Of a stretch of DNA of 43,656 nucleotides, positions 4,023 through 35,104 are shown in pieces. The notes under the pieces are model-generated. The model was not told where the DNA came from. It did no database searches and saw only the letters and a list, made by a program, of their open reading frames with translations. The stretch is from Candidatus Woesearchaeota archaeon (GTDB lineage: Archaea > Nanobdellota > Nanobdellia > Woesearchaeales > GW2011-AR4). The DNA is taken from the NCBI GenBank assembly GCA_016784105.1, contig JADHVG010000002.1, positions 1 to 43,656 of the forward strand. Reading direction: 5' to 3'. The position numbers and the translations under genes were made by a program. Within the stretch, counting starts at the first letter, position 1, and each line of letters starts with the position of its first letter.

Positions 4023-5894
4023 TTATTTTTTAATACAAGATTTGATATACTCCTGTAACTCTTTATCACAACAATAAACATAACACCCTTTTTGACCCCT
4101 AGTCATTAAAGTTCTATAAGTATTTTTAATTATTTCTTCTGCAATCTTTTTAGCTCTTTCTGGATTATTTTTTGCCATCTTCTTAATCCCTTTCAATGAT
4201 TGATCTGTCTTCGCTCGTTTATTGTAATCAGTAATAAGATTACCAGACCTAAATCTTAAATCTAACCCGATTATTACTCCAACATAATCAAATTCTAACC
4301 CTTGACAAGTATGAATACATCCTATTTCATTTACTGATTCTTTATCTATTGCCCAAGTAGAAGTGTTGCCCAAATTCCAACTCATTGAAAATTTAAATTG
4401 AGGCAGAGATATATCGTGAATGTTGCTTTTATCTTTCCCTTCTTTATTCCAATCCCAACAATATCCCGCCAATAGTCTTGCCTTGTTGTTCTCCTTATTT
4501 TTTTCTAATATCATTTCTTTTAATTTATTTGGGTCATCAATAATTCTAAAATTATATTCTCCCTCAAATCCATCAAAATTGGCAGTTTCACGTATACCTA
4601 ATAAATTATCAAGCCATGCAAGGTATCCATCTGAACCATTACACCTAAATTGTGAGTTTAACTCAACTATTTTTATTCCAGCATTAAATAATGATGCATA
4701 TTTTTTAATTTCAGATTTCCTTCCTATGTCAAAAATATCAATTTTCTGGCTTTCATCAATAAAAAATATACTAAATTTAGAGGAATTGATAATCTCTTTG
4801 ATTTGATTTTCTCCAAAATTTTTAAAAAAACCTGATTTTTCATTTAACCTATGTGCTTCATCTACAACTAAAACATCAAATACATTCTTATCACAATCGT
4901 GAAATATTCCAGAACTTTTGAATAAATTATCTATATGAGATTTTGTTGTTGTCCCTTTTAGCTTAGATGAATATACATTTCTGGGAGCCGAATTTTTTGA
5001 AATATAATGTACTACCATATTTTTATTGGTTAGTTTTACTAATAAATTTACAGCTAAGACTGATTTTCCAGTTCCTGGTCCGCCTTCCACTATTAGTACT
5101 CTTTTTTTGTTATCTTTAAAAGATTTAAGAGCCATAGATACTGCTTCTTCATAGACAATTTTTTGATCATCAATCAATGTAAATTCGTCATTACCCTCTA
5201 ATAAATTAACTAAAGAATCTTGTAGAGTTTTTGATGGTTTTAGCCTACCTTGGTCTATCTGGTATAATGTGTATTTATTATCGCCATATTTTATGAATTT
5301 AGATATAAATCTTCTAAGTTTCAGAACTTCTCCTTTTGTGTATATAGGAGCTTTTTCAAGATAATATGAATAAATCGGGTCTTCTATTTCAGGATTCTTA
5401 CTTCTATCTAGATTATGCAAAAAAGCACAAGGATAAATGCCAATATTCTCTTTTTGGACATTTTCATTAAAATCTTTAATTAAATTATGGTAAGACCATA
5501 CTTGGTAAGAAGGGTGAGTAGTTTCATGTATCCCCCTTCCTAATGGTGTTTTTACTATTGCATCCTTGCCATCAACCTTGTATACCTCATCCCACCTTTT
5601 TAACTCTATTATAACAACTAGATTATCTTTCTTTTCACCTTTGCCAGAAATTATGAAATCTACTCTTTTGCTAGTAGCTGGAATACGAAATTCAATAGCT
5701 ATCCCACAATTATTTGGAATTTCCTCTGATTGCACCACTTTATACATATATTGCATAGAATCTGACCATGAACTAATCTCTTTTTTAGATACTCCTCCAA
5801 TCTTTCTATGGTAATTGCTGTAGATTTCATCAGAAATAGTATCGTTTAAGACAGAATTGCAAAAATCATTTTTTGTTCCTTCGTATACTAACAT
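4023..5894 (-). CDS. DUF2075-family SF1-like ATPase/helicase with N-terminal PD-(D/E)xK nuclease-like module
   Basis: Walker A is VEGGPGTGKSV and Walker B/DEAH is VLVVDEAHRL. DUF2075-typical blocks are present: FFIDESQKI, SQFRCNGSDGYLAWLDNLL, AGYCWDW, CIHTCQGLEFDYVGVIIG, LMTRGQKGCYVY. The N-terminus has RVDFII ... VVIIELKRW (D ... ExK). Confidence 0.85.
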   Translation of the reverse strand: MLVYEGTKNDFCNSVLNDTISDEIYSNYHRKIGGVSKKEISSWSDSMQYMYKVVQSEEIPNNCGIAIEFRIPATSKRVDFIISGKGEKKDNLVVIIELKRWDEVYKVDGKDAIVKTPLGRGIHETTHPSYQVWSYHNLIKDFNENVQKENIGIYPCAFLHNLDRSKNPEIEDPIYSYYLEKAPIYTKGEVLKLRRFISKFIKYGDNKYTLYQIDQGRLKPSKTLQDSLVNLLEGNDEFTLIDDQKIVYEEAVSMALKSFKDNKKRVLIVEGGPGTGKSVLAVNLLVKLTNKNMVVHYISKNSAPRNVYSSKLKGTTTKSHIDNLFKSSGIFHDCDKNVFDVLVVDEAHRLNEKSGFFKNFGENQIKEIINSSKFSIFFIDESQKIDIFDIGRKSEIKKYASLFNAGIKIVELNSQFRCNGSDGYLAWLDNLLGIRETANFDGFEGEYNFRIIDDPNKLKEMILEKNKENNKARLLAGYCWDWNKEGKDKSNIHDISLPQFKFSMSWNLGNTSTWAIDKESVNEIGCIHTCQGLEFDYVGVIIGLDLRFRSGNLITDYNKRAKTDQSLKGIKKMAKNNPERAKKIAEEIIKNTYRTLMTRGQKGCYVYCCDKELQEYIKSCIKK

Positions 5895-28195: not shown

Positions 28196-29704
28196 TTAAG
28201 CATACAATTCTGTTTCTGGATAAAAACTTACCCAGCTAAACCAAAAATGCCCAAAAGTATCAACAACTTCCAACTTAGAACTCATTTCATTAACATCCCA
28301 TTCCCCCTTTTTATTATCTAAAATCTTATCATTTTCTATTCTAAATTCTAATGCCTCTCCTTCAAATGTTCTTTCAAATATTTTTACAGTATTCAATACA
28401 TCATCCCATAAAACAACTATTGGAACATCTCCTATAACATCATTGATTAATTCGTCACGCTGCACATCACTTTCTTCATAAGCTTTAGATTTTCCATTAA
28501 ACTCAACTCCAAAAACTATCTTTTTAGCATGTAATCTGTCATCAGAACTTTCAACTGGAAAATATAATCTTTCAGAATTTTCATAACCTTCATAAGGATT
28601 TCTGGAATAATCTCTGATAAATCCTGTTTCTTTTCTCAGTACTTGAGTATCTGGATGCGCTTTTCTCCAATCTTTCCATCTTACTGTGTCTAAAGGAACT
28701 TTTTCCAGAACTTGACCGGTAGCAGATCCGATTATAGCTTTTCCAGGTGTTTGTGACCAATAGCTGTCCGTCAAACGATCATACATAACTAATTCAGAAT
28801 TGTATAATTTTCCGGATGTTCCAAACTCAACTTCCTGACCATTTACAATCGGTTTAAATGCGATTCCAGTCCTGCATAGAGGACAATAAGTTATCAGTAT
28901 TCTTTCTCCGTTTATCTTGTCATTGACAATTTCGTGCCAGTTCAAAATCTTGTGAGGGTATGCTTTTGCAACCCCATCATAGAATAGTCCCAAAACCAAG
29001 TCATCATCATCTACTTGAGTGTCAGCTTCGTGAGCAGGTATGAACTTAGGAACATCTAAGCTTGGAATTCCATCTTTTGGGGGTCCTCCTGATAGTATTT
29101 TAGAAGGATGAATTATATATTTTGTTCCATCTTCCAAAACTTTTATTTTATCTTTTTCTGATGATTCTTTGAGCTTTCCAAATTTTTCTTCTATTTCTTT
29201 CTCTGTTAGAGGCCCAAACTTTTTATCAGTAATTCTTCCATTTTTGTCAATAAAGTATGTTACTGGTTGTGTAAAAACATTATACATCTCTTTGACATCT
29301 GAACTTGGATCTAAAAGCAAAGTAAAAGTAACGGGAATTTCTTCCAGAAAAAAATCTATCTTTTCTTTGTCTTCTTGTAAGTTGATCCCTAAAACCTCAA
29401 TATCTTTATTTTCTTGGAATATTTTTTCAAATTCTGGAAACTCTTCCCTACAAGGAGGACACCAGGAAGCCCAGAAATTGATTATGACTAATTTACCACG
29501 AAGATTACTTAATTGTACTTCCCCCCCATTAATATCACTAAGAATGAAATCTGGTGCTAGATTTCCAATTTCTAATCCAGTATCCTTACTATCTTGAAGC
29601 TCTTCCATTACAATTTCTTTATCAGAAAAAGGATCTTGAATTATGAAGATTGCTATAACAACTAAAGAGATTATTGCTCCTAAAACATATTTGTTGTTTT
29701 TCAT
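28196..29704 (-). CDS. Membrane-anchored TlpA-like thioredoxin fused to a DUF3179 domain
   Basis: The N-terminal anchor is VLGAIISLVVIAIFII. The thioredoxin-fold motif is INFWASWCPPCREEFP. The DUF3179 blocks are KDGIPSLDVPKF, KAYPHKILNWHEIVND, ITYCPLCRTG, SGKLYNSELVMYDRLTDSYWSQ and WKDWRKAHPDTQVL. Confidence 0.8.
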   Translation of the reverse strand: MKNNKYVLGAIISLVVIAIFIIQDPFSDKEIVMEELQDSKDTGLEIGNLAPDFILSDINGGEVQLSNLRGKLVIINFWASWCPPCREEFPEFEKIFQENKDIEVLGINLQEDKEKIDFFLEEIPVTFTLLLDPSSDVKEMYNVFTQPVTYFIDKNGRITDKKFGPLTEKEIEEKFGKLKESSEKDKIKVLEDGTKYIIHPSKILSGGPPKDGIPSLDVPKFIPAHEADTQVDDDDLVLGLFYDGVAKAYPHKILNWHEIVNDKINGERILITYCPLCRTGIAFKPIVNGQEVEFGTSGKLYNSELVMYDRLTDSYWSQTPGKAIIGSATGQVLEKVPLDTVRWKDWRKAHPDTQVLRKETGFIRDYSRNPYEGYENSERLYFPVESSDDRLHAKKIVFGVEFNGKSKAYEESDVQRDELINDVIGDVPIVVLWDDVLNTVKIFERTFEGEALEFRIENDKILDNKKGEWDVNEMSSKLEVVDTFGHFWFSWVSFYPETELYA

Positions 29705-29758: not shown

Positions 29759-30931
29759 TTATCCAAAAGTGAAAGTATTCATCTTGAAACCTTTTCCATC
29801 AATTATCAGTTCTAAGAGTCCAGGACCGTACTCATAATCTACGACATTGTATAGCTTGCCATCTTGCACTTTAAGAATTCCTGTTCCATTTATTATCTCA
29901 ACATCGTTTCCTTTCTTGGGTTCATCTAAATCTCTAGTATCTTGATATATCTCTATAATACTTCCTAATTCTGAACTTGCGACTATGTTGACAACTTTAG
30001 AGTTATATCCTAGGATGATCCTCCCCGTGTCACTGACAAGCTCTGCATCATCCTGATTTATTTTCCACGTGCCACCTAAATAAGCCTGGTTATTTTTTGC
30101 TATTGAAGGTAATTTGTATGTAACTGTTTTGTTAGGCGGAAGTCCTTCTGCATTTCCGAAATTCCCTCTAGCAAACTTATAACCAAAATATATTTCTGGA
30201 GTTCCAACCTTTTCACGTTCAATATCAACAACGTCTCCCACTTCTTCATCATTTTCCTTGAGTTCTGTCCCGTATCTTTCCATGCGTTCTTCTAATAATG
30301 CCTTGATAACTTCTTCTGTTTCATCATACTTTCCTTCTCCAATGTGATCATATCTAATAAAACCGTCAATATCTATCAAGAACTTGTGCGGCCAAAATCT
30401 ATTGTTGTAAGCACGCCAAGTAGCATAGTTATTGTCTTGCACGATCGGATATTCCAACTGATATTTCTCAGCAGCATCAAGAACATTTCTATATTCTTTC
30501 TCAAATTCAAATTCAGGAGTATGCACTCCAATTATAACAAGCCCATCATCCGCATATTTGTCATGCCAGTTTTTCAAGTAAGGTAAGGTGCGTATACAAT
30601 TAATGCACGTATAAGTCCAAAAATCAACTAAGACTACTTTTCCCCTTAAGCTTCCAACTGTCAAGCTTTTTGGAGCGTTTATGTAACCAGAAATTCCAGT
30701 TAATTCAGGAGCAAACTTAAAAAGATCATTTTTTTGTTCGACTATTTTTTCATCTTTGATATAACCTTCTTTATTTAGAACTATTTCCTGAAACTGTTCA
30801 TTTTCCTGTTCTTCAACAACTACTTCCTGAGCTGGATTTTCATCTATCTTGACTTTCCCGGATTCAAAATAGTAGATAGAGAGACCTATTATCAATACCA
30901 CTACCCCCAAAGCAATATTTTTATTTTTCAT
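29759..30931 (-). CDS. Membrane-anchored DipZ C-terminal-like thioredoxin-fold protein with C-terminal beta-rich domain
   Basis: Motifs VVLVDFWTYTCINCIRTLPYL, VIIGVHTPEFEFEK and FWPHKFLIDIDG, plus a C-terminal domain of about 150 aa. There is a 1-nt gap to the upstream ccdA-like gene. Confidence 0.75.
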   Translation of the reverse strand: MKNKNIALGVVVLIIGLSIYYFESGKVKIDENPAQEVVVEEQENEQFQEIVLNKEGYIKDEKIVEQKNDLFKFAPELTGISGYINAPKSLTVGSLRGKVVLVDFWTYTCINCIRTLPYLKNWHDKYADDGLVIIGVHTPEFEFEKEYRNVLDAAEKYQLEYPIVQDNNYATWRAYNNRFWPHKFLIDIDGFIRYDHIGEGKYDETEEVIKALLEERMERYGTELKENDEEVGDVVDIEREKVGTPEIYFGYKFARGNFGNAEGLPPNKTVTYKLPSIAKNNQAYLGGTWKINQDDAELVSDTGRIILGYNSKVVNIVASSELGSIIEIYQDTRDLDEPKKGNDVEIINGTGILKVQDGKLYNVVDYEYGPGLLELIIDGKGFKMNTFTFG

Positions 30932-30932
30932 T

Positions 30933-31682
30933 TTAATCTTTTTTAACTACTGTTGTCGCTAGATACGATAAGAATGCTGGTATTAGCGGCAATACACACG
31001 GACTTAAGAAAGACACTATTCCGGCTAGGAAAGAGACTCCAAATCCAAAACTGTTTCCGAATGATGCACCTGTGCTGCTGTCAAAGCTTATAAGCAAGTT
31101 GCTCAGAAATGGAAAACTTGCTATTCTGCTCAGTTGGTTTGTAAAAACAAATATTCCCAATATTATCAGGATAACTCCAAAAACATAATTGATATATTTT
31201 AATTTGTTTCCTGATTTAGTTATCCATGAAGCTGCTTGGTTCGTAAACAATCCAACAATCAAAAAAGGTATTCCTAATCCTAATGAGTAAGAGAGCATTA
31301 ACGGAAACGCTGATGCTGGGTTAGAAACTGCTAAAGTTAATATTGCTCCTAGGATAGCTCCAACACAGGGCGTCCATCCCACCGCAAATGCGCTTCCAAA
31401 AACAAATGATGTTGCATAAGAATACTTAAATTTTCTTTTGACTTTTAATTTATGTTCCTGTTCTAAGAAAGGTATCTTGACCAATCCAAGTAAAAATATC
31501 CCAAAAAAGATTATTATGGTTCCTCCTAAGTATCCTAACCAGGTTTGCACGGTAAAAGATACGCTTGAAAGCACACTTTGTAATAAAACTCCTACCAAGG
31601 AAAATATCAGACTAAACCCTAACACAAAAAATACTGAATTTATGAAAATACTCCATTGTTTTGTTTCTGCCATCTCATTCAC
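30933..31682 (-). CDS. ccdA: CcdA/DsbD-family membrane thiol-disulfide transporter, apparently circularly permuted
   Basis: It has six TM segments. The GWTPCVGAILG motif (canonical TM4) lies near residue 106. The FLAGIVSFLSPCVLPLIPAFLSYL motif (canonical TM1) forms the last helix, near residue 229. Confidence 0.8.
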   Translation of the reverse strand: MNEMAETKQWSIFINSVFFVLGFSLIFSLVGVLLQSVLSSVSFTVQTWLGYLGGTIIIFFGIFLLGLVKIPFLEQEHKLKVKRKFKYSYATSFVFGSAFAVGWTPCVGAILGAILTLAVSNPASAFPLMLSYSLGLGIPFLIVGLFTNQAASWITKSGNKLKYINYVFGVILIILGIFVFTNQLSRIASFPFLSNLLISFDSSTGASFGNSFGFGVSFLAGIVSFLSPCVLPLIPAFLSYLATTVVKKD

Positions 31683-32478
31683 CTTTTTTTATTTCTTCTA
31701 AAACTCTTGTCTTGTCAAACACTTCAAGACTTTTCAACATTACTTCTCCTGAGCTCCCTATCAAAACTTTTGTGTGCTGGTAGGTTATGCCATATTTTTT
31801 GGCCATTTCCTTATCGTCTTTGGTTTCCTCATTGTCATTATAATGCACTTCATACCCCACAACATTTTCATTATTTAGTTCGTTAAAAGCAGCAAGTATC
31901 TCTGGTTTTTCCTTCTTGCAATTAGGACACCAGTTTGCATAAAAATCGAGAAATATTATCTTTCCTTCCTTTAGGCTTTGATCGTAATGAACTTTACTGA
32001 ATCGGTAGTAGTTTGAAGCCAACTCTTTTGGAGATTCCATCATTGCCCCTTCAGAATTTATCGAAAACTTTTTCACAACAACAACATCATTAACCTTGAC
32101 AGGCCCATCTGCTCCAGGGAACTCATAAACTCCATCTCCATTATCATAGTGAAGCATCGCTATTAGTTCTTTTTCATCTTCATAACCTGCAACTTCTACT
32201 TCCAAATTCTGAACTTTTCCCAAGAAAAGAGCAGAATTTCCTACTACCGAACCCGGTTTGCCATCAACTACTTTGTGCATGACAACATAACCTGCCTTAT
32301 CTATCTGCACGCTTTCCAAAGTAACTTTGCTACCTAACACTTTTTGGTCCGAAACACCAATGGATATTGCCTTACTTTCCTCTTTAACAACAACCTGCTC
32401 CTGAGAACATGCTGCAATTAAAAACAAAGAAACTATCCCTATTATCAAAAAATATTTTTTTTTCATTTTTTTATCCAT
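31675..32478 (-). CDS. Lipoprotein with central beta-rich domain and C-terminal thioredoxin fold
   Basis: Lipobox LIAAC. The central segment GYVVMHKVVDGKPGSVVGNS...AMLHYDNGDGVYEFPG resembles an archaeal surface-protein domain as I recall it. The C-terminal segment FLDFYANWCPNCKKEKP carries a WCPNC site. Confidence 0.7.
   Translation of the reverse strand: MDKKMKKKYFLIIGIVSLFLIAACSQEQVVVKEESKAISIGVSDQKVLGSKVTLESVQIDKAGYVVMHKVVDGKPGSVVGNSALFLGKVQNLEVEVAGYEDEKELIAMLHYDNGDGVYEFPGADGPVKVNDVVVVKKFSINSEGAMMESPKELASNYYRFSKVHYDQSLKEGKIIFLDFYANWCPNCKKEKPEILAAFNELNNENVVGYEVHYNDNEETKDDKEMAKKYGITYQHTKVLIGSSGEVMLKSLEVFDKTRVLEEIKKGE
32403..32466 (-). repeat. Signal-peptide-coding cassette, copy 1 (near-identical to 41998-42058)
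   Basis: gagaacatgctgcaattaaaaacaaagaaa is identical in both copies. There are then 2 mismatches in 6 nt, followed by ctattatcaaaaaatatttttt, which is again identical. Copy 1 has one extra Lys codon. Confidence 0.85.
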
Positions 32479-32512: not shown

Positions 32513-32797
32513 TTATTCCCAGGTTATTACCAATAATATTGAGAAAGCTATTGCTTGCAATAACGTTTGTATGAACACATGCATTGCAACATCTGCAACA
32601 TAATAATCCATCATTGTAAAGAAAAAATAGAATGATACTAAGTTCTGTAATAAAAATAATGATGCGAATATCAATAATCCCAGAGTAAATGGTGATCTTA
32701 TCTTTCTGAGATTTTTCGAGTATATACCTATTAATAGCATCAGCAACACAACACACACTGCTGTTAACACCATTGTTAAGGTCATTACCGATTCCAT
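32513..32797 (-). CDS. Small 3-TM membrane protein
   Basis: 94 aa, with segments LTMVLTAVCVVLLMLLIGI, LGLLIFASLFLLQNLVSFYFFF and FIQTLLQAIAFSILLVI. It lies 27 nt downstream of the ArsR-like gene. I prefer it to the overlapping frame 32505-32756. Confidence 0.55.
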   Translation of the reverse strand: MESVMTLTMVLTAVCVVLLMLLIGIYSKNLRKIRSPFTLGLLIFASLFLLQNLVSFYFFFTMMDYYVADVAMHVFIQTLLQAIAFSILLVITWE

Positions 32798-32824: not shown

Positions 32825-33109
32825 TTACTTTTTCCCAAATCTTTCCCAAATCTGTTCAAAAACTTCCATATTTTCTTCCATGATCTTAGTTAGGAAGTAC
32901 ATTGCGCCGTACTTGCCTTTATTTATTGCTTCTAAGATGTTGTTCTTTTCCAGTATCTTCAGATGATGTCTTATTGTTTTATAATCCAACTTTAGATTTT
33001 CTGACAATTTATTTGCATTAGAAGGAGTTTTTTTTAGTAAGTTGATGATTCTTCCTCTTGTTTCTCCTCCTTTAGTTCCAGCTATAAGGTACCACAACAA
33101 GTTCTTCAT
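32825..33109 (-). CDS. ArsR-family winged-helix transcriptional regulator
   Basis: GGETRGRIINLLKKTPSNANKLSENLKLDYKTIRHHLKILEKNNIL. Confidence 0.75.
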   Translation of the reverse strand: MKNLLWYLIAGTKGGETRGRIINLLKKTPSNANKLSENLKLDYKTIRHHLKILEKNNILEAINKGKYGAMYFLTKIMEENMEVFEQIWERFGKK

Positions 33110-33227: not shown

Positions 33228-33266
33228 AAATAAAAAATTTAATTTTTAAAACTTGAGGTGGTTCCC

Positions 33267-33905
33267 ATGAACAAAAAAATTGTCATTGCTCCCGTAGGAG
33301 ATAATATGGATGCATTATTTATTGGTATCAAAGAGTTTCCAACAGAACGTGTTATTTTGCTTTGTCCGGAAGAAAATTTTGATGCTGCAAACAAAGCTAA
33401 AAAAGATCTTGAAAAGTTCCAGATTCCAGTCCAAATAAGTGAGATGAAAGGAAATGTTTGGGAGAGCATGTTTCAAAAAATTTCTGAATTAAAAGAGATA
33501 GAAAACGAAAAAGACATTATTATCAACACTGCTACCGGTGACAGAATGACCACTTGTGCAGCAACTTCAGCAGCTTTCGTTAATGGACTTAAGGCAATGT
33601 CTGTTATGGGTAATGATGCCATGATGCTTCCTGTTTTGAAATTTTCTTATTATAGCCTACTAACTGATAAAAAAATGGATATAATGAACTTATTGAATGA
33701 ACCTGGATGCTGTTCTTCTTTAGAAGAATTAAGCAAGAAAACCAAGATGTCTCTACCATTAATCTCTTACCACATCAACGGTAACCTTAAATCTGAAGGT
33801 CTTAAGGAGATGGGTCTAGTGGAAACAACCGAACAAAAAGGGAGAATAAACTTGAAATTAAGCATGCTCGGGAGATTGTTATTGAAAGGATATGTAAATT
33901 CTTAA
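33267..33905 (+). CDS. Csa3/CARF-like Rossmann domain fused to a wHTH (putative ligand-sensing regulator)
   Basis: The N-terminal strands are IVIAPVG, RVILLCPE and IIINTATGDRMTTCAATSAAF (TGG-type CARF-like loop). The C-terminal wHTH is MDIMNLLNE...SLEELSKKTKMSLPLISYHI...GLVE. The assignment rests on pattern only. Confidence 0.45.
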   Translation: MNKKIVIAPVGDNMDALFIGIKEFPTERVILLCPEENFDAANKAKKDLEKFQIPVQISEMKGNVWESMFQKISELKEIENEKDIIINTATGDRMTTCAATSAAFVNGLKAMSVMGNDAMMLPVLKFSYYSLLTDKKMDIMNLLNEPGCCSSLEELSKKTKMSLPLISYHINGNLKSEGLKEMGLVETTEQKGRINLKLSMLGRLLLKGYVNS

Positions 33906-34375: not shown

Positions 34376-35104
34376 ATGGAAATTTCTGTTATAGCCTCAG
34401 GGAGCAATGGTAATTGTTGCTTGGTTGAACATCAAGGTGTTTCTGTTTTGATTGATGCTGGTAAGAGCGGCAGTGAAATTGAAACCAGAATGAAAAAATT
34501 AAATAAGAATTTAGACGATGTTGATGGAATTGTCATTACCCATGCGCACAGCGATCATATTTCAGGTGCAGGAGTTCTATCCAGAAGGTTTGGAATTCCG
34601 GTTTATACAACTAAAGAAGTACACTCCCATGCAAAGCTAGGAAAATTTGAAAGTAAGATATTCTCGGGAGATTTTAAAATAAATAACTTAAAAGTTAAAC
34701 CAGTTGCAACATCCCATAATGTGAATTCCTGTGGTTTTGTTATCGGAAAGTTTGGATACTTTACCGATACTGGTGTTGTTACCAATCACATGAAAAAAGC
34801 TATTCCAAATTTGAATTCTATCCTGCTTGAAAGCAATTACGATGCTGAGTTGGTTCATAATGGACGCTATCCTGCTTTTCTCAAGAAATGGATATTATCT
34901 GATGAAGGACACCTAAGCAATGATGATGCAAGTTCCATAATCCAGGAAAAGGGGAAGAATCTTACCTTGGTTTTGCTTGGGCATCTATCTGGGAACCATA
35001 ACACCCCAGGCATTGCTTCTGAAACCTTCAATACTCTTGTCAAGAAGAAGATTGATTTTAGTGTATGTTCCAGAGACAAAGAATCCGGAACCTGGAAAAT
35101 ATAA
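34376..35104 (+). CDS. Metallo-beta-lactamase-fold hydrolase (YycJ/PhnP-like)
   Basis: Motifs LIDAG, ITHAHSDHISG (HxHxDH), and later TSHN and GHLS. A TATA-like tttttatacaa (34345-34355) lies about 26 nt upstream of the ATG. Confidence 0.8.
   Translation: MEISVIASGSNGNCCLVEHQGVSVLIDAGKSGSEIETRMKKLNKNLDDVDGIVITHAHSDHISGAGVLSRRFGIPVYTTKEVHSHAKLGKFESKIFSGDFKINNLKVKPVATSHNVNSCGFVIGKFGYFTDTGVVTNHMKKAIPNLNSILLESNYDAELVHNGRYPAFLKKWILSDEGHLSNDDASSIIQEKGKNLTLVLLGHLSGNHNTPGIASETFNTLVKKKIDFSVCSRDKESGTWKI

Follow-up and report, generated by a model that had tools for sequence, protein, structure and literature searches.

The stretch of DNA considered here, contig JADHVG010000002.1 (GenBank assembly GCA_016784105.1) of a Candidatus Woesearchaeota archaeon, was analysed over its positions 1 to 43,656, hereafter the window. 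Its minus strand harbours a six-gene operon in the order HTH_5, DUF8036, N1, ccdA, N2 and N3 (Table 1). The fourth gene encodes a homologue of CcdA, a protein through which reducing power crosses the membrane to reach thioredoxin-like enzymes. The six hydrophobic segments of this homologue follow one another as TM2-TM3-TM4-TM5-TM6-linker-TM1', where the transmembrane helices (TM) are numbered as in canonical CcdA: the helix that opens the canonical protein, together with its cysteine, stands at the C-terminal end. No second CcdA/DsbD gene or CcdA-like open reading frame (ORF) was found elsewhere in the window.

Table 1. The permuted ccdA gene, its parts and the neighbouring genes of the operon (positions in the window; residues in the 246-residue numbering unless stated otherwise).
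Feature	Positions	Strand	Description	Basis
Permuted ccdA	30933..31673	minus	246 residues from the ATG at 31673	ORF listing, wrapped alignments
Core, canonical TM2-TM6	31134..31652	minus	residues 8-180, collinear with canonical residues ~41-209	
GWTPC motif, TM4 catalytic cysteine	31365..31379	minus	Cys103 (Cys106 in the 249-residue numbering)	read from the sequence
Extracytoplasmic linker (predicted)	31041..31133	minus	residues 181-211	BLASTP against canonical P0121
Relocated helix TM1'	30954..31040	minus	residues 212-240, GVSFLAGIVSFLSPCVLPLIPAFLSYLAT	aligns to 5VKV residues 5-33
K-rich C-terminal tail and stop codon	30933..30953	minus	TVVKKD and stop	sequence; comparison with canonical P0121 and P0123
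HTH_5/ArsR-type regulator	32825-33109	minus	operon head	Pfam marks on public copies
DUF8036 small membrane protein	32513-32797	minus	operon head	Pfam marks on public copies
N1, thioredoxin lipoprotein	31675..32478	minus	lipobox signal peptide LIAAC, DUF7282, thioredoxin domain (WCPNC)	Pfam
N2	29759..30931	minus	N-terminal TM anchor, Redoxin/TlpA-like domain (CINC), C-terminal Thioredoxin_10 (DipZ-type module)	Pfam
N3, third extracytoplasmic thiol enzyme	28196..29704	minus	TM anchor, AhpC/TSA-Redoxin domain (WCPPC), DUF3179	Pfam

An in-frame GTG at 31682 would extend the gene to an ORF of 249 residues (30933..31682) that begins with MNEMAETKQWSIFINSVFFVLGFSLIFSLVGVLL and ends with FGVSFLAGIVSFLSPCVLPLIPAFLSYLATTVVKKD. 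The ATG at 31673 is the start in public gene calls and in the homologues, and on these grounds it is likely the true one. The first-pass annotation of this DNA had read the longer ORF, had placed GWTPCVGAILG near residue 106 and had proposed the helix order 2-3-4-5-6-1; start, motif and end read identically in the sequence, and the order is borne out by the wrapped alignments described below. The gene upstream had been described as encoding a lipoprotein, in agreement with the lipobox of N1, and as overlapping ccdA by 8 nt. That overlap does not hold for the ATG start, which lies 1 nt past the N1 stop codon (31675-31677); the accompanying statement that no TM1 is hidden upstream stands, there being no room for one with either start.

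The opening segment of the protein (WSIFINSVFFVLGFSLIFSLVGVLL) is what follows TM1 in ordinary CcdA proteins. The GWTPCVGAILG motif lies mid-protein, and the SPC cysteine of TM1', Cys226 (encoded at 30996-31004), is found near the end in the context SFLSPCVLPLIP. Comparison by phmmer with T. thermophilus CcdA (PDB ID 5VKV, chain A) gave an overall expectation value (E) of 2.4e-32, in two segments and in wrapped order: query residues 14-190 align with residues 41-209 of the chain (94.9 bits, E 6e-26), and query residues 214-242 with residues 5-33 (27.1 bits, E 3.2e-5). The Pfam family DsbD_TM (PF02683) also matches in two stretches, with 51.6 bits for a cut-off of 27.1; in the best of them, residues 7-180 cover positions 39-215 of the 219 of the profile, the first ~38 profile positions being absent at the N-terminal side. 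The related Pfam family DsbD_2 scores 45.5 bits (cut-off 24.9). A profile of our own, a hidden Markov model (HMM) built from 117 sequences each re-ordered to the canonical order, aligns its positions 31-213 with residues 10-191 (230 bits) and its positions 2-32 with residues 216-246 (43 bits, E 2.6e-13). In each case the match is wrapped and not collinear. The protein is a genuine CcdA homologue, possessing the profile match and both cysteine motifs of the family (SPCxLP and GWTPCxG), that fails one defining feature, the canonical helix order.

The two junctions can be traced to the canonical protein. The cut point, marked by the K-rich C-terminal tail, falls within the ancestral TM1-TM2 loop, which is cytoplasmic in canonical relatives; in canonical P0121 and P0123, this loop runs on into TM2. 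The linker that joins TM6 to TM1' is composed of the ancestral C-terminal tail RIASFPFLSNLL, common to canonical relatives, and of a G/S-rich joint to the ancestral N-terminus, and it varies in length and sequence from lineage to lineage.

The distribution of charges over the 120 nearest homologue clusters is biased: lysine plus arginine residues average 13.6 in the N-terminal tail, loops 3-4 and 5-6 and the C-terminal tail, versus an average of 1.9 for the linker together with loops 2-3 and 4-5. Both termini are therefore predicted to be cytoplasmic, with the core oriented as in canonical relatives, which supports the earlier proposal that the rearrangement is topologically permissible. The catalytic cysteines, noted at first pass as preserved, are both invariant in these 120 homologues and in a broader set of 145 permuted proteins from several phyla. 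Invariant positions of the latter set include W100, P102, C103, G105, S221, F222, S224, P225, C226 and P232; W100, P102 and C103 are also invariant in the 120 nearest homologues, and T101 is invariant in the 120 and conserved at 90% or more in the 145. Over the window gene and ten Woesearchaeota loci, nonsynonymous divergence (dN) amounts to 0.16 in TM1', 0.25 in the core and 0.69 in the linker, values used only relative to one another as synonymous divergence (dS) is saturated (~2) and dN/dS is rough. In its new place, TM1' is under constraint at least equal to that on the rest of the protein, and constraint on the linker is relaxed.

The internal repeat of CcdA is also retained. An hhalign comparison of residues 1-117 with residues 118-246 returned a probability of 85% and an E of 6e-6 over 107 columns, with cysteine on cysteine, and paired TM2 with TM5, TM3 with TM6, and TM4 with TM1'. 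The permuted chain is a 3+3 repeat rotated by one helix, (TM2-TM3-TM4)+(TM5-TM6-TM1'), in which a cysteine helix closes each half.

Far from being confined to this genome, the permutation is found in hundreds of relatives, which make up a large family. The 120 protein clusters nearest to the window protein (68-100% identity, 241-262 residues, from many independent metagenomes) all share the order first proposed for it; those with a named source come from Woesearchaeota or Nanoarchaeota. A second protein set, the 150 best matches in a library of 50%-identity representatives, comprises 110 canonical proteins, 22 permuted ones and 18 fragments. In GTDB species genomes, the 80 best loci include 49 permuted and 30 canonical ones, the former belonging to Woesearchaeota/Nanoarchaeota and to many Patescibacteria (Taylor-, Staskawicz-, Sungii-, Lipton- and Nomurabacteria, Paceibacterota). 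When bacterial permuted proteins were used as seeds for a second GTDB scan, eight of 80 loci were permuted, mostly in Chloroflexota. Cluster names place further permuted members in Dehalococcoidia, Anaerolineae and Eremiobacterota, where they are annotated plainly as CcdA; the NCBI name of some members is “sulfite exporter TauE/SafE family protein”. Permuted proteins are thus currently filed as ordinary CcdA or TauE/SafE, and domain models give N-terminally truncated matches to them.

Close to the window protein, the permuted form is dominant in DPANN archaea and in bacteria of the Candidate Phyla Radiation (CPR), which hints at gene exchange between these groups. The clade of the window protein mixes DPANN archaea (loci L001-L010) with Patescibacteria/CPR (L011, L014, L016, L017, L021, L023, L024, L027-L039, L041, L043, L045, L050, L067, L080) at 54-63% identity, usually with a Redoxin-Thioredoxin_10 gene downstream. 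Such mixing suggests inter-domain transfer of the permuted operon, with the proviso that the labels of metagenome-assembled genomes (MAGs), above all automated “TPA_asm” names, may be unreliable. In one Taylorbacteria MAG (L033, 4932-5771), the permuted ccdA is broken into two ORFs, covering core residues 4-67 and residues 72-198 plus TM1'; a split of this kind indicates a frameshift, a pseudogene or an error of sequencing.

The genomic setting of the permuted gene is that of an ordinary ccdA. N1 and N2 are kept beside ccdA, whether permuted or canonical, at most of the 80 loci. In Woesearchaeota, the HTH regulator and DUF8036 genes are kept upstream of both forms, the flanking regulators being 60-73% identical. 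The arrangement HTH-DUF8036-Trx-ccdA-Redoxin/Trx10 surrounds permuted genes, for example at L002 and L010, and surrounds canonical genes of other Woesearchaeota just as well (L056, L062, L063, L068-L071, L075, L077). As the operon slot is shared, the permuted gene appears as an in-place replacement of an ordinary ccdA and not as a paralogue in a new context. The canonical protein P0125, whose core is 58% identical, carries as a C-terminal fusion a Redoxin-Thioredoxin_10 module, the module found in N2. With its predicted cytoplasmic C-terminus, the permuted CcdA cannot bear an external domain at this end, and N2 possesses its own membrane anchor. N3 is found in the identical operon on other contigs and at several Woesearchaeota loci. 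A 579-nt metatranscriptome contig covers 31172-31750, including the N1/ccdA boundary, and is consistent with co-transcription of these two genes.

N3 itself is a membrane-anchored AhpC/TSA-Redoxin fusion whose DUF3179 domain scores 342.9 bits. We know of no function assigned to DUF3179; that it is joined to a CxxC redoxin within a CcdA operon may indicate a thiol-dependent role outside the cytoplasm.

The inverted-repeat topology of CcdA (5VKV, determined by NMR) and an elevator-type model of its action have been summarised in bioRxiv 10.1101/2022.09.07.506916. The window gene very probably encodes a functional circularly permuted CcdA, a six-helix thiol-disulfide transporter in which TM1 (SFLSPCVLPLxP) follows TM6 via an external linker of ~30 residues. 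The fold would keep the CcdA arrangement, with Cys226 of TM1' facing Cys103 of TM4 in the membrane core. A disulfide formed by these two residues would be reduced from inside by a cytoplasmic thioredoxin; an alternating-access movement of the elevator type would then turn the dithiol outward, where it would reduce the CxxC motifs of the flanking proteins, WCPNC in N1, CINC in N2 and probably WCPPC in N3. The permutation would leave the orientation of the core as it is, bring both termini from the outside to the cytoplasm, and cause the cysteine helix to be inserted last.

Several points weigh against this interpretation. The activity of every permuted member is a prediction, and the substrates are read from the gene neighbourhood. 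Two AlphaFold2 runs gave low-confidence models, with a mean predicted local distance difference test (pLDDT) of 58 and 61 and a predicted template modelling score (pTM) of 0.40 and 0.55; a Foldseek search of the PDB with these models returned no match with E below 0.2, 5VKV included, and models of this quality speak neither for nor against the CcdA fold. The metatranscriptome contig could derive from contaminating DNA, and the saturation of dS mentioned above belongs here as well.

The permuted protein might also be real and have changed its function, for instance to that of a small-molecule or anion exporter of the TauE/LysE type. This is unlikely. The TauE/SafE label carried by some members favours it, and so do the NCBIfam results on the window protein, which are limited to sub-threshold matches to ArsG, TsoB and DsbD models. 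Moreover, no cytochrome c maturation function was noticed among the window genes examined, which are of central metabolism, in what was neither a targeted search nor a survey of the genome. However, the two redox cysteines do not vary, nor do the motifs around them, CcdA and DsbD_TM come out as the best matches in the PDB and Pfam, and the gene is flanked by extracytoplasmic CxxC proteins of thioredoxin fold, as are its canonical orthologues. The lack of cytochromes counters only the name “cytochrome c biogenesis protein”, probably a misnomer for the window CcdA, and not the transfer of reductant; a more plausible role would be the repair of envelope thiols or defence against peroxide.

The origin of the permuted order was addressed with neighbour-joining trees (200 bootstraps) in which every sequence was re-ordered to TM1 plus core. 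The DPANN+CPR clade of the window protein is purely permuted (47 sequences, bootstrap 0.42; an inner group of 32 at 0.71; the Woesearchaeota subclade at 0.97). Elsewhere in the tree, permuted and canonical proteins are close neighbours: P0241 pairs with P0202 at a bootstrap of 1.0, P0226 with P0256 at 0.94-0.99, and permuted L054 is nested among seven canonical Micrarchaeota-type sequences at 0.95. Pairwise BLASTP of the sister pairs is wrapped, at 51-64% identity, and the linkers of permuted P0157, P0241, P0226 and L054 are each collinear with the C-terminal tail plus N-terminal head of their own canonical sister. With the clade of the window protein included, the tally of independent changes in order reaches at least five.

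The clearest of these changes concerns a young pair. Permuted P0157 (262 residues), Chloroflexota-like, is 81-87% identical to canonical P0341, P0311 and P0310 (258 residues): its residues 5-213 align with residues 46-254 of the canonical proteins, and its residues 219-262 with residues 1-44. Its junction reads ...FWQRLSARNVD-MDPTSISFGLAFLAG, where the canonical proteins end with ...FWQWLTGTQG and the stop codon and begin with MDPAKVSIGLAFLAG; the ancestral start methionine (MDP) is kept in the P0157-type gene and is now internal to the linker. The new stop codon lies at the position of canonical Gln45 (codons GGA TAG versus GGC CAG in L081/L082) and the new start at canonical Val47. The permuted locus L081 and the canonical locus L082 are fully syntenic, with ccdA at the same coordinates in both, PolyA polymerase, GNAT, LiaF-like, molybdopterin oxidoreductase, ferric-reductase-like and YkuD genes on one side and Redoxin and DUF2085 genes on the other. 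By blastn, their flanks are collinear at ~80-84% identity, and the sole rearrangement inside the gene is the shift of its initial 136 bp to the 3' end.

As an observation on these surroundings, ccdA stands there (L081 1018-2769, L082 992-2640) beside an Oxidored_molyb and Ferric_reduct couple resembling MsrP/MsrQ, a YkuD transpeptidase and a Redoxin gene, an envelope-repair neighbourhood and not a cytochrome c one.

From these data, CcdA is probably a hotspot of natural circular permutation, in which TM1 passed to the C-terminus independently at least five times, one of them by a recent in situ replacement (87% identity). The lineages concerned would be the DPANN+CPR clade, the Micrarchaeota-type group, Eremiobacterota, the Chloroflexota-like P0157 group and a further, unassigned bacterial group (P0241). 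In the lineage of the window protein, the permuted form would have become fixed, and archaea and bacteria (Woesearchaeota, Patescibacteria) share it. Each change most likely began with a tandem duplication of ccdA fused in frame, followed by the loss of TM1 of copy 1 and of TM2-TM6 of copy 2, a route that the family would have taken repeatedly; for the young pair, each duplication-and-truncation intermediate would stay functional. No duplicated remnants are left at the L081/L082 junction, so this route can be read only from the anatomy of the junction. No protein with TM1 at both ends, no tandem ccdA and no 12-TM fusion was present among the 270 + 117 proteins and 160 loci. In the most ambitious version of the hotspot proposal, the permutation is adaptive, the possible gains being the cytoplasmic termini and a cysteine helix that is inserted last.

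Three proteins were considered as permutation intermediates and rejected. P0263 and P0214 are canonical with insertions, and P0285 is a canonical CcdA in which approximately TM2-TM5 is exactly duplicated within the chain. P0285 (357 residues) is known from one ENA contig of 2.2 kb, and GVAASFAGGLLYDLRYW occurs twice in it; either part of the gene was truly duplicated in tandem or the repeat is a product of assembly.

A single ancient permutation, with the sister pairs being tree artefacts or reversions, would be an alternative for the evolutionary part of the argument and is distinctly improbable. The neighbour-joining backbone is weakly supported, most deep nodes having a bootstrap below 0.3, and the DPANN+CPR clade, taken by itself, is compatible with one event. 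Against such a scenario stand the four pairs or nests at 0.94-1.0 and the pair with 81-87% identity whose loci are syntenic. Nor does it predict linkers collinear with the tail and head of each canonical sister, and any reversion would count as a further permutation.

Whether TM1' might be an extra seventh helix, or the remnant of a second copy, the protein then relying on an N-terminal helix that has diverged or on a TM1 provided in trans, was also considered, since origins by duplication and truncation pass through stages with leftover pieces. This is scarcely credible: only ~7-13 residues precede the TM2-aligned segment, the hydrophobic segments are six and not seven, and the best TM1-like match elsewhere in the window has an E of 0.35, with no such ORF of at least 20 residues. 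None of the 270 classified proteins bears TM1 at both ends, nor does any combine an additional C-terminal helix with a divergent N-terminal TM1. The S-P-C residues and prolines of the C-terminal helix are invariant across phyla, and its dN does not exceed that of the core.

The authenticity of the sequence is attested independently of the homologues. The identical 246-residue protein, in the same six-gene neighbourhood, occurs on nine contigs from at least four samples, produced by different assemblers (two assembly pipelines). Logan contigs from marine metagenomes, 8.1 and 6.3 kb long, span 30600-31900 with no joint. The sole variant over this interval is a G>A at 30740, which falls in the Redoxin gene downstream of ccdA and is a fixed difference between the window and the Logan contigs from three runs. 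The ccdA stop codon is followed immediately by the ATG of the next gene, N2, which begins 1 nt past it. A mis-assembly, a risk already raised at first pass, in which the 3' end (30933-31050) would be chimeric, for example through collapsed tandem ccdA copies, and the true gene canonical, can be dismissed: the window does derive from a metagenome, the rearranged piece is short and the unrelated public protein P0285 shows that an exact internal duplication, possibly artefactual, can occur, but the independent assemblies and Logan contigs cross the gene unbroken with their one variant outside it, the stop and start codons at its 3' end directly adjoin, and the same order is common to the 120 homologue clusters and to 49 loci of separate GTDB species genomes. 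To the extent that sequence data can do so, they refute an assembly artefact.

Placed beside known systems, the window CcdA shares with 5VKV homology over the six helices, the SPCxLP and GWTPCxG cysteines, the 3+3 repeat, extracytoplasmic thioredoxin-like gene neighbours and the predicted orientation of the core. It differs in its helix order (2-3-4-5-6-1 versus 1-6), in its termini, predicted to be cytoplasmic versus external, in the ~30-residue external TM6-TM1' linker that takes the place of the cytoplasmic TM1-TM2 loop, and in the cysteine helix being synthesised last. DsbD beta and DipZ-type fusions belong to the same transmembrane core family, and N2 corresponds to the module fused C-terminally to canonical CcdA in P0125; unlike these fusions, the window CcdA bears neither fused soluble domains nor the extra TM7-TM8.

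To our knowledge, very few natural circular permutations have been documented among polytopic alpha-helical membrane proteins. For VKOR and DsbB, a circular permutation (ABCD versus CDAB) has been proposed to have arisen by whole-gene duplication and loss of the outer helices (PMC4555120). This ancient event is a structure-based hypothesis about families that lack clear sequence similarity, and it was presented in 2015 as the first case for helical membrane proteins (PMC4555120). Both cases concern an alpha-helical membrane thiol-redox enzyme and are explained by duplication and loss. In contrast to VKOR/DsbB, permuted and canonical CcdA proteins reach 87% identity, occur as orthologues at one and the same locus and reflect a probably recurrent event; the fold and the direction of electron flow differ as well. 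The full-text literature that could be searched, outside which most subscription journals lie, yielded no account of a permuted CcdA or DsbD; none had been known at first pass either.

Permuted CcdA would thus represent a permutation visible at the sequence level, recurrent and in part very recent, in a protein whose mechanism is being actively investigated. The matched canonical/permuted pairs, which occupy the same operon and reach 87% identity, could be used to ask whether the covalent TM1-TM2 connection matters for the elevator movement, or whether a TM6-TM1 tether constrains it. They could also be used to ask how the order of insertion, with the cysteine helix first or last, affects the folding of an inverted-repeat membrane protein.

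Other features of the window do not touch upon CcdA. A tRNA scan of the window found none. A 623-residue protein is encoded at 4023-5894 (minus strand); it exhibits a Schlafen group 3 DNA/RNA helicase domain (353.9 bits) preceded by ~260 N-terminal residues that received no assignment, and it is possibly a defence-related nucleoside triphosphatase in a small archaeal genome. Adjoining the operon, an HFX_2341_N-like protein is encoded on the plus strand at 33258-33905. It is followed at 34376-35104 (plus strand) by a protein of metallo-beta-lactamase fold, whose match to the anti-Pycsar protein Apyc1 (23 bits, below the cut-off of 50) is probably a generic similarity of this fold.

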